A DNA stretch of 64,000 bases from Enterobacteria phage vB_EcoM_IME281 (MH051913), one strand, 5' to 3'; positions 3,452-4,689 are shown, numbered from the stretch's first letter. A program made the numbers and translations. Notes: a model not told the origin generated them from the sequence alone.

Positions 3452-3906
3452 TGAAAACGGAAGATTTTGCTCAAGGTCTATACGTTGCTGCAAAATTCTC
3501 TGAATTGACTTTAGATGCGCTGGAAAATCTTCAGCGCACTTTAAAGGTTCCTAATCCGGTTCCTCGTGAAAAATTCCATTCTACAATCTGCTATTCAAGA
3601 GTCAACGTTCCATACACCGTTGCATCCGGAAGTTTTGAAGTTGCTTCGACAGGACATCTTGAAGTGTGGAAACATGGCGATTCTCCCGTCTTGGTACTGG
3701 TTCTCGATTCAGAGTATCTTAAATGCCGCCATCAGTATGCTCGTACCTTAGGTGCTACGCACGATTTCGATGATTATACCCCTCATATCACATTGTCTTA
3801 TAATGTAGGACCTCTTACCTTTAGTGGAGATGTCCGGATTCCTGTCGTTTTAGATAGAGAATATAAAGAACCCTTGAAGCTCGACTGGGCCGAGGATTTA
3901 AAATGA
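3451..3906 (+). CDS. acb1: 57B / Acb1-like 2H phosphoesterase (anti-CBASS cyclic-oligonucleotide phosphodiesterase family)
   Basis: Two H-x-T/S-x motifs (HSTI, HITL) about 80 aa apart, typical of the 2H superfamily; size 151 aa and position after 57A match T4 57B. Confidence 0.6.
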
Positions 3907-4112
3907 AAACCTACAGCGAATTCTTAACAGAAGCAATGGAATCCGCCTCTTCGGTGGCAATAGAGGTTTCTTGTACTCCTGAAGAATTTAAAGAAAGCCT
4001 GAAAGGTATAAATTGGCTTTCAGGAGAGTTATCTAATGGGGTTGCCTACTTCTTCGGCCCTCAATCAGATATAGATAGCTGGGTCTCTGAAAATTCTTCA
4101 TGGCTAAAATAA
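3903..4112 (+). CDS. internal-protein-like, capsid targeting sequence (CTS) family (69 aa)
   Basis: N-terminus [10 protein letters not shown]|A matches T4 internal protein CTS (MKTYQEFIAE) with L-x-E prohead protease site; at the T4 ipI position. Confidence 0.6.
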
Positions 4113-4124
4113 TTTAAAAAAGGT

Positions 4125-4153
4125 GTTTACAAGGTCTATAGACATGATACTAT
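4125..4153 (+). promoter_or_regulatory. early promoter/stem-loop cassette (PeSL-like)
   Basis: GTTTAC, 17-nt spacer, TACTAT; conserved core GATACTATAGGCCTATCAA; palindrome GTCTATAGAC in spacer. Confidence 0.6.
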
Positions 4154-4190
4154 AGGCCTATCAAACCAAACCAACCACATGGAAATCAAA

Positions 4191-4415
4191 ATGAAAACTT
4201 ATCAAGAATTTATTACAGAAGCTAAAAAACACGAAGACCAACTGCCGGTTGTTACAAAAACCTTTGACGGTACATTGGCCGATTTTAAAAAAGTCCCTAG
4301 TGATAGGCTCGCTAAATTGACCGGGAGTATCGGTGAAAAAGATGGCAAGGTCACGTTTTCTGCTCAAGGTACAGCCAATCTTAAAAAACTTTTGAAAGCC
4401 GCTGGCGCAGAATAA
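4191..4415 (+). CDS. internal-protein-like, CTS family (74 aa)
   Basis: MKTYQEFITE|A N-terminus; preceded by early promoter cassette 4125-4153. Confidence 0.6.
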   Translation: MKTYQEFITEAKKHEDQLPVVTKTFDGTLADFKKVPSDRLAKLTGSIGEKDGKVTFSAQGTANLKKLLKAAGAE

Positions 4416-4416
4416 A

Positions 4417-4689
4417 ATGAAAACTTATCAAGAATTTATCGCTGAATCTATTCTTAATGAGGAAGTAAAAATTAACAAATCTGTTAAGACTATGATTGAT
4501 GATATAAATCATCTCTATAACATTGATTTGACTAATCATGTAACTTTAGGCAATAAGCGAAACTTTTTTGTATTTGATACTTCAGAACTTGACCAGAATC
4601 AAATTAACAATATTGAACGTTTTGCTAATGAAAAAGGGTTGCGCCACGAGACGGCTGGTTATAAAAAGTATGCAATTTATTTAAAATAA
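4417..4689 (+). CDS. internal-protein-like, CTS family (90 aa)
   Basis: MKTYQEFIAE|S N-terminus; tandem with two other CTS genes. Confidence 0.6.
   Translation: MKTYQEFIAESILNEEVKINKSVKTMIDDINHLYNIDLTNHVTLGNKRNFFVFDTSELDQNQINNIERFANEKGLRHETAGYKKYAIYLK

Follow-up and report, generated by a model that had tools for sequence, protein, structure and literature searches.

The genes for the internal head proteins (ip genes) carried by T-even phages are reportedly polymorphic, as Repoila et al. are said to have described in 1994. Internal proteins have been characterised as diverse, packaged proteins that inhibit type IV restriction enzymes and have only an N-terminal tag, the capsid-targeting sequence (CTS), in common (PMC3012670, PMC6024577), and each of the three T4 proteins Ip1, Ip2 and Ip3 blocks a different GmrSD enzyme (PMC12373910, Silas 2025). 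Since they arrive together with the DNA, internal proteins constitute the first counter-defence line of the phage. Here, we analysed a stretch of 64,000 nucleotides (nt) of Enterobacteria phage vB_EcoM_IME281 (MH051913), hereafter referred to as the window, which contains six open reading frames (ORFs) starting with such a tag. Our analysis indicates that these six ORFs very probably encode internal head proteins (Ip), and that the phage is of the T4 type and JS98-like. The system as such is already known: the tag, the diversity of the cargo and the exchange of cassettes have all been described before and no new mechanism is involved. What is added here are three tag-bearing families that carry no label in the databases, a tag-anchored exchange of cargo, and the finding that this lineage has lost IPIII.

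A preliminary description of the window, made from the DNA sequence alone, had listed six ORFs starting with MKTY[QNS]EF[IL]xE and had equated their N-termini with the CTS of T4. All six are real and located on the + strand (Table 1); they are named below by their first nucleotide. The identity with the T4 tag also holds: both ipII and ipIII of T4 read MKTYQEFIAE, ipI starts with MKTFKEFTS in the T4 record, and IPII is annotated in a GenBank record of T4 as a precursor that spans residues -10 to 90. When both strands of the 64 kb were searched with the back-translated motif ATGAARACNTAYNNNGARTTYHTNNNNGAR, exactly six matches were obtained, each of them where an ORF begins, compared to none in 100 dinucleotide-preserving shuffles (six observed versus zero expected). 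A scan of the window with a relaxed motif ([MVL]xx[YFW]x[ED][FILMY][ILVM]xE, required to coincide with the start codon of an ORF of 40 amino acids or more) returned the same six ORFs and no further tag genes. The determinants of targeting, i.e. an aromatic residue at position 4 and Phe7, are present in all six proteins, all of which begin with MKTY.EF. As had been claimed, the [IL]-x-E site of the prohead protease is found at residues 8-10 in 6/6 cases (in gene order from 3903 to 17429: LTE, ITE, IAE, LNE, IAE and ITE), and the proteins are mutually unrelated past residue 10, the best match of an all-versus-all BLASTP comparison having an E-value of 0.12. The predicted mature proteins have sizes of 6-22 kDa and are basic, except for 3903, which is acidic, and 4417, which is near neutral.

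The nucleotide identity among the six copies is 0.80 in the CTS versus 0.31 in the following 60 nt. Such a pattern could also be produced if the shared 5' end were merely a cassette for recombination or translation initiation at the nucleotide level, with no role in targeting and with some of the ORFs not being genes. In line with this explanation, recombination breakpoints fall at CTS codons, the 30-nt CTS sequences of 4191 and 17429 are identical, and several published annotations omit 3903. However, nearly half of the pairwise codon differences within the CTS are synonymous (29/59), different codons being used for invariant residues. Changes of amino acids among the six copies are limited to positions 5, 8 (I/L) and 9, and codons 3, 4, 7 and 10 (T, Y, F and E) show synonymous differences only, which fits the published mutational map of the T4 CTS, with targeting assigned to residues 4 and 7 and processing to residues 8 and 10 (PMC9026906); the conserved positions are thus those that are important in T4 mutagenesis. 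In other genera, the orthologues of the three unlabelled families keep the tag and its amino acid pattern, often with other nucleotides or even other residues (variants include ML.F.EF, MYTFNEF and GTG-KSYKEF), and 3903, 7603 and 16513 are all retained as full-length proteins across genera. Furthermore, the CTS alone suffices in T4 to package foreign proteins (PMC3012670, PMC9026906). The tag is under selection at the protein level. The nucleotide-level cassette artefact, which the preliminary description had raised against its own proposal, is largely refuted by the codon comparison and the cross-genus alignments; we reject it in its pure form on these two grounds and consider it extremely improbable as a whole.

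The 5 kb around the tagged genes are 92.3-99% identical over 72-100% of the length to the six closest genomes, which include UP19, JS98, EcWhh-1 and IME08, all JS98-like T4-type phages of the genus Dhakavirus, and the phage of the window is a Dhakavirus as well. Five of the six tagged genes reside in the two ip loci of T4, 57B-trna.4 and e-denV, and 7603 lies outside of both, past the tRNA cluster and ahead of e.8, at a locus of its own. Three of the proteins have named relatives. The similarity of their mature domains to Ip7 (17429), Ip8 (4191) and Ip9 (4417) extends over the full length, with PHROG E-values from 3e-27 to 2e-56, and on the basis of this similarity they are assigned to these families. 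4417 shares 98.8% identity with Ip9 of IME08, annotated as 'similar to RB15 and K3 Ip9' (PHROG E=2e-56), and 17429 shares 87.6% identity with 'ip7: internal head protein' of VR5 and 48% with Ip7 of T2 and RB32. The 17429 family comprises 282 phage records and the 4191 family 106, many of which are labelled 'internal virion protein'; the 4191 homologue of Merlin is annotated as 'RB15 Ip8-like'. A mechanical list of ORFs places the start of the latter gene at 4179 (MEIKMKTY...), but 4191 is the likely start because the upstream ATG is missing in IME08 and JS98. The other three families carry no such labels: 16513 is represented by 48 phage records, all 48 'hypothetical', 7603 by 137 records, 'hypothetical protein' throughout among the matches listed, and 3903 by 27.

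Table 1 Tag genes, regulatory elements and tRNAs annotated in the window. aa, amino acids; pI, isoelectric point.
Feature	Position	Strand	Details
Internal-protein gene, unnamed family phrog_23867	3903..4112	+	Precursor 69 aa
Early-type promoter TTTACA-16-TACTAT (4126-4153) with embedded hairpin (4132-4159)	4122..4172	+	Promoter scan; fold z-score -4.6
Ip8-like internal protein gene, phrog_8765	4191..4415	+	Precursor 74 aa; CTS MKTYQEFITE; mature pI 9.6
Ip9 internal protein gene, phrog_7673	4417..4689	+	Precursor 90 aa; CTS MKTYQEFIAE
Second early-type promoter TTTACA-17-TACTAT (4693-4721) with hairpin (4701-4726)	4693..4726	+	z-score -3.2
tRNAs Met, Asn, Arg	6510-6742		
Terminator-like hairpin, followed by T run	7539-7560	+	Upstream of the late promoter of 7603
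Candidate internal-protein gene, phrog_2280, JS98 orf135	7603..8220	+	Precursor 205 aa; CTS MKTYNEFLNE
Hairpin directly 3' of the 7603 stop codon	8221..8246	+	Ends single-gene late transcription unit
Candidate internal-protein gene, phrog_15461	16513..16911	+	Precursor 132 aa
Early-type promoter-like site TTTACG-17-TAGAAT	17376..17404	+	Consensus match only; upstream of the Ip7-like gene
Ip7-like internal protein gene, phrog_2667	17429..17728	+	Precursor 99 aa; CTS MKTYQEFITE; mature pI 9.0

Among the unlabelled genes, 3903 overlaps with its start codon the stop codon of 57B (ATGA), and homologues directly follow 57B in Kagamiyama-, Winkler- and Moonvirus, with the N-termini MKSYKEFLTE, MKTYKEFLAE and MK-FTDFLNE, each followed by an invariant AME. 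The predicted mature protein has 59 amino acids and a pI of 4.1. Orthologues are present without annotation in JS98, JS10, IME08 and UP19, those of JS98 and UP19 with a GTG start. RefSeq and GenBank leave out the 57B-proximal ip genes of JS98 (2007-2656), IME08 (1988-2494) and UP19 (2022-2307; coordinates of the compared stretches); the two unannotated tag genes of JS98 at this locus are the GTG-start orthologue of 3903 and a gene for an Ip of 97 amino acids.

The second unlabelled gene, 16513, starts within the final 14 nt of the lysozyme gene e (16032-16526) and could be transcribed from the late promoter of e at 16002-16009. Residues M1, K2, T3, Y4, E6, F7, I8 and E10 of its CTS are invariant in 12/12 aligned homologues. 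The codons of the tag supply the last residues and the stop codon of e, which ends with ...WKAYENL* in the window versus ...WAAYR* in JS98; the TAA stop of e exists because the AAT codon for Asn5 of the tag creates it. From the stop codon of 16513 onwards (16911-17120), the sequence made up of the intergenic region and denV shares about 95% of its nucleotides with T4 and other Tequatroviruses, which suggests from the sequence comparison that this block was recently exchanged between genera.

At both ip loci, closely related phages carry different cargo behind the same tag. The 57B-proximal locus of the window contains 3903, the Ip8-like gene and Ip9, and that of JS98 the 3903 orthologue and a single, unrelated Ip of 97 amino acids. 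The two phages are homologous across the left promoter-hairpin and along the codons of the CTS; this homology ends together with the tag and returns with the right promoter-hairpin just past the stop codon of Ip9. The Ip8-Ip9 module is bounded on the left by the element at 4122..4172, which resembles the PeSL elements discussed below, and on the right by the element at 4693..4726, which serves in addition as promoter for the trna.4 homologue. Near-identical early-type promoters (TTTACA, spacer of 16-17 nt, TG-TACTAT) occur at 4122-4172, 4693-4726 and 8281-8308, the first two with stable hairpins. The e-denV locus has four arrangements within the genus, namely e-ipIII-16513-denV in JS98, e::16513-ipIII in QL01, e::16513-denV in the window, EcWhh-1, IME540 and E33, and, in IME08, an ipII-like cargo behind the same e::tag junction. 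These comparisons show an exchange of cargo by recombination anchored in the tag codons and the promoter-hairpin elements. Mechanistically, the cargo is very probably replaced via homologous recombination, with the 30-nt CTS coding sequence and the flanking promoter-hairpin elements as anchors.

A tblastn search for IPIII in the window yielded a match to the tag only, i.e. IPIII is absent. Since IPIII has been lost, the repertoire of tag genes reflects gene turnover and not simple expansion. The preliminary description had spoken of an expanded repertoire, which is true in comparison with T4, where we find two strict matches plus ipI, but not within the genus, as JS98 also has six tag genes with a partly different set. 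Among the matches listed in a scan of IMG/VR, the complete T4-like genomes (23 genomes) contain 2-5 strict matches each; JS98, QL01 and Marfa have five each, and the sixth gene of JS98, with its GTG start, is missed by the strict pattern. Six tag genes are at the top of the observed range and typical for the genus, and we therefore reject the idea of an unusual expansion. The same scan revealed at least 141 tag-initiated ORFs with cargo in at least 56 similarity clusters, which confirms the great diversity of the cargo behind the tag. The strict tag also starts ORFs on IMG/VR contigs that are not obviously T4-like (L024, L051, L082 and others), among them a 15-member cluster of proteins of 161-275 amino acids and a protein of 836 amino acids. 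By our estimate, chance should account for about one match in all of IMG/VR, so that these ORFs probably represent real tag-bearing cargo.

Based on the analogy to T4, the CTS would bind the scaffolding core and the precursor would thus be built into the prohead, where the prohead protease gp21 would cut after Glu10 of the [LI]-x-E site. In three of the proteins, a second cut by gp21 is probable, after LNE15 in 4417 and 7603 and after LNE34 in 16513; the scan for cleavage sites found LNE at residues 13-15 of 4417, LNE|A at the same residues of 7603, and L-x-E at residues 32-34 of 16513, where it is conserved in the family. The mature proteins would remain in the head with the DNA and be ejected with it into the host. 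It is from this analogy that we infer packaging, cleavage, ejection and anti-restriction activity of the six proteins. Given the precedents of the T4 Ips, an anti-restriction role appears to be the best assumption for the five small and patchily distributed proteins 3903, 4191, 4417, 16513 and 17429, each of which would most likely neutralise one host enzyme attacking hypermodified DNA; the large, basic, widely conserved and late 7603 is more likely a DNA-associated component of the head. The earlier view of all six as injected anti-defence effectors is thus supported in part, by the CTS, by the three named Ip families and by the literature, but 7603 looks more like a component of the head. 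The precedent is in fact stronger than the preliminary description had stated by reference to IPI* as an inhibitor, because all three T4 Ips inhibit distinct GmrSD enzymes (PMC12373910).

Several results weigh against the reading of the six ORFs as internal proteins with an anti-restriction role. For four of the six genes, 16513 among them, no late promoter of their own is evident. Neither gp21 nor the scaffold gene product gp22 is encoded in the 64 kb of the window; both belong to the T4-like core genome (PMC9026906). In favour of the reading, the prohead protease is conserved in the genus, the gp21 versions of the Dhakavirus JS10 and of T4 sharing 88% identity over the full length. Ten non-T4 ip genes showed no new inhibition when confronted with five further active GmrSD systems (PMC12373910), so that activity against GmrSD cannot be taken for granted. 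In the DNA of Dhakaviruses, arabinosylated derivatives of cytosine are predicted instead of glucosylated hydroxymethylcytosine (PMC13326640); the host enzymes of relevance may accordingly not be the ones that attack T4. Searches of the mature domains against T4 IPI, IPII and IPIII by BLASTP and tblastn detected similarity in the CTS only; hence, the six proteins are not members of the Ip1, Ip2 or Ip3 families, and may still act in a like manner. Scans of all six proteins against Pfam and NCBIfam gave nothing above threshold, no match was accepted in sequence searches of 7603, 16513 and 17429 against the PDB, and Foldseek searches of the PDB (cut-off E <= 0.001) with AlphaFold2 models of 7603 (mean pLDDT 64) and 16513 (mean pLDDT 54), whose confidence is low to moderate, gave a best E-value of 0.28, with only generic helical hairpins for 7603. 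The structure and homology search of mature domains proposed in the preliminary description hence gave no function. In the literature, we found no virion proteomics for Dhakavirus or for phages with 7603 homologues.

Two candidate relationships of 16513 were discarded. Its weak match (E=0.014) to M.HhaI, covering the target-recognition part of this enzyme at residues 189-276, was treated as chance. The predicted alpha-beta5-alpha topology of 16513 recalls the published description of IPI*, but the model is too weak for such a claim, and the 50 best Foldseek matches listed for it do not include IPI*.

The inactivity of the ten ip genes on the active GmrSD systems tested and the lack of relationship between the mature domains and Ip1-3 could also be explained if the proteins were injected effectors with targets other than type IV restriction enzymes, such as other defences, host transcription or the cell envelope. 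The CTS of viral metagenomes carries the aforementioned unrelated cargo families, some of them up to hundreds of residues in length, and T4 Alt, which is also packaged, is an ADP-ribosyltransferase acting on RNA polymerase (PMC9026906). On the other hand, every Ip with a known target (Ip1, Ip2 and Ip3) inhibits an enzyme of the GmrSD family, this family is very diverse with few variants tested so far (PMC12373910), and the searches for families and folds revealed no domain pointing to another activity. We consider such other targets rather unlikely, and retain inhibition of restriction enzymes as the preferred role of the five small proteins.

The third unlabelled gene, 7603, differs from the others in its surroundings and conservation. 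It forms a unit consisting of a hairpin with a T run, the late promoter TATAAATA, the gene and a second hairpin. The late promoter had already been noted in the preliminary description and is located at 7567-7574 on the + strand, 29 nt ahead of the start codon; a (T)ATAAATA box also precedes the orthologue in 8/8 other phages examined. Likewise confirmed was the Pro/Ala/Lys-rich linker, which spans residues 74-113, is disordered in the AlphaFold2 model and is flanked there by N-terminal and C-terminal helical domains. The gene is conserved and syntenic in at least eight genera of the Tevenvirinae and absent from T4. From Dhakavirus to Karamvirus and in metagenomic representatives, the tags of the orthologues follow the pattern M-x-x-[FY]-[NK]-[ED]-[FI]-[LI]-x-E, and the tag is kept even when the N- or the C-terminal domain is swapped. 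The family is modular, some members combining the tag and the C-terminal domain with a different N-terminal domain (QL01, 154 amino acids; P0042) and others the N-terminal domain and the linker with a different C-terminal domain (IME523, P0040).

The properties of 7603 bear on the question whether the packaged proteins are chiefly structural, i.e. serve in neutralisation of DNA charge, condensation or arrangement of the DNA, or core assembly, and not in inhibition of defence. Mature 7603 (195 amino acids, pI 9.66) nearly equals mature T4 IPIII (183 amino acids, pI 9.65) in size and charge, its linker is disordered and rich in Lys, Pro and Ala, and it is conserved together with its late promoter at a fixed place in the genome, while IPIII is missing from the window. 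In T4, IPIII mutants show slower head assembly, and lysines of internal proteins contact DNA phosphates (PMC9026906, PMC3012670). However, T4 IPIII is also a GmrSD inhibitor (PMC12373910), which means that structural and inhibitory roles are not exclusive, and JS98 carries IPIII and a 7603 orthologue together, so that 7603 is not a simple replacement of IPIII. Moreover, mature 3903, with its acidic pI, cannot neutralise DNA charge, and the swapping of small Ip genes between close relatives is the pattern of an arms race and not of structural proteins. A chiefly structural role of the whole set is therefore doubtful in our view, if strongest for 7603. For 7603 itself, the effector reading of the preliminary description is not borne out by its conservation, synteny and late promoter, and the protein is most plausibly a DNA-associated head component rather than a fast-evolving effector of an arms race. 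As a tentative extension, which we put forward as a possibility and not as our expectation, the 7603 family may represent a so far overlooked fourth class of internal head protein in T4-like phages that travels with the genome, carries a histone-H1-like Lys/Pro/Ala linker and takes the morphogenetic and DNA-organising role of IPIII; if this were true, the set of injected proteins would, together with 3903 and 16513, reach phages with arabinosylated DNA.

The gene order of the window is the T4 map in reverse, starting with gene 1, 57A, 57B, the three tagged ORFs, trna.4, trna.3, trna.2 and three tRNAs, followed by an orf136-like gene, the 7603 gene and e.8, and, farther along, lysozyme e, 16513, denV and 17429. 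An Rfam scan of positions 3000-18500 detected the three tRNAs and no other non-coding RNA. A second copy of TATAAATA lies at 6945, upstream of an ORF of 184 amino acids (6979-7533) between the tRNA cluster and the 7603 unit. This ORF, whose product begins with a hydrophobic N-terminus and which resembles orf136 of JS98 ('similar to RB43 ORF080w'), is a late gene.

With this work, six candidate internal proteins, three of them unlabelled in databases, are listed for a phage genus used for therapy, including in 7603 a conserved family of the size of IPIII that T4 lacks, and the predicted cleavage sites are directly checkable by proteomics. In comparison with the internal proteins of T4, the window proteins share the N-terminal decapeptide of IPII and IPIII with the gp21 site at residues 8-10, they are small and mostly basic, and five of six genes occupy the same two loci. 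In contrast to T4, their mature domains have no detectable similarity to any T4 Ip, the window lacks IPIII, 7603 resides at a third locus and the cargo of 3903 is acidic; furthermore, the DNA of the phage is probably arabinosylated and not glucosylated (PMC13326640). Homology exists with the proteins annotated in GenBank as Ip7, Ip8 and Ip9 in T2, RB32, RB15, K3, VR5 and IME08, to which 17429, 4191 and 4417, respectively, correspond, but, unlike T-even Ip7, the Ip7-like gene of the window adjoins denV and not the 57B-proximal locus. The organisation around Ip8 and Ip9 finally resembles the PeSL (promoter-early stem-loop) cassettes of RB49 and phi1, by which modules are shuffled in the genomes of T4-type phages (Arbiol et al. 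2010, PMC2839356), in that two similar sigma-70-type promoters with embedded hairpins bracket the two genes and the segment replaced in comparison with JS98 extends as far as the right-hand promoter-hairpin. It differs from them in its left breakpoint, which is located inside coding sequence at the end of the CTS instead of in an intergenic region, and the CTS thus acts as the second anchor of recombination.

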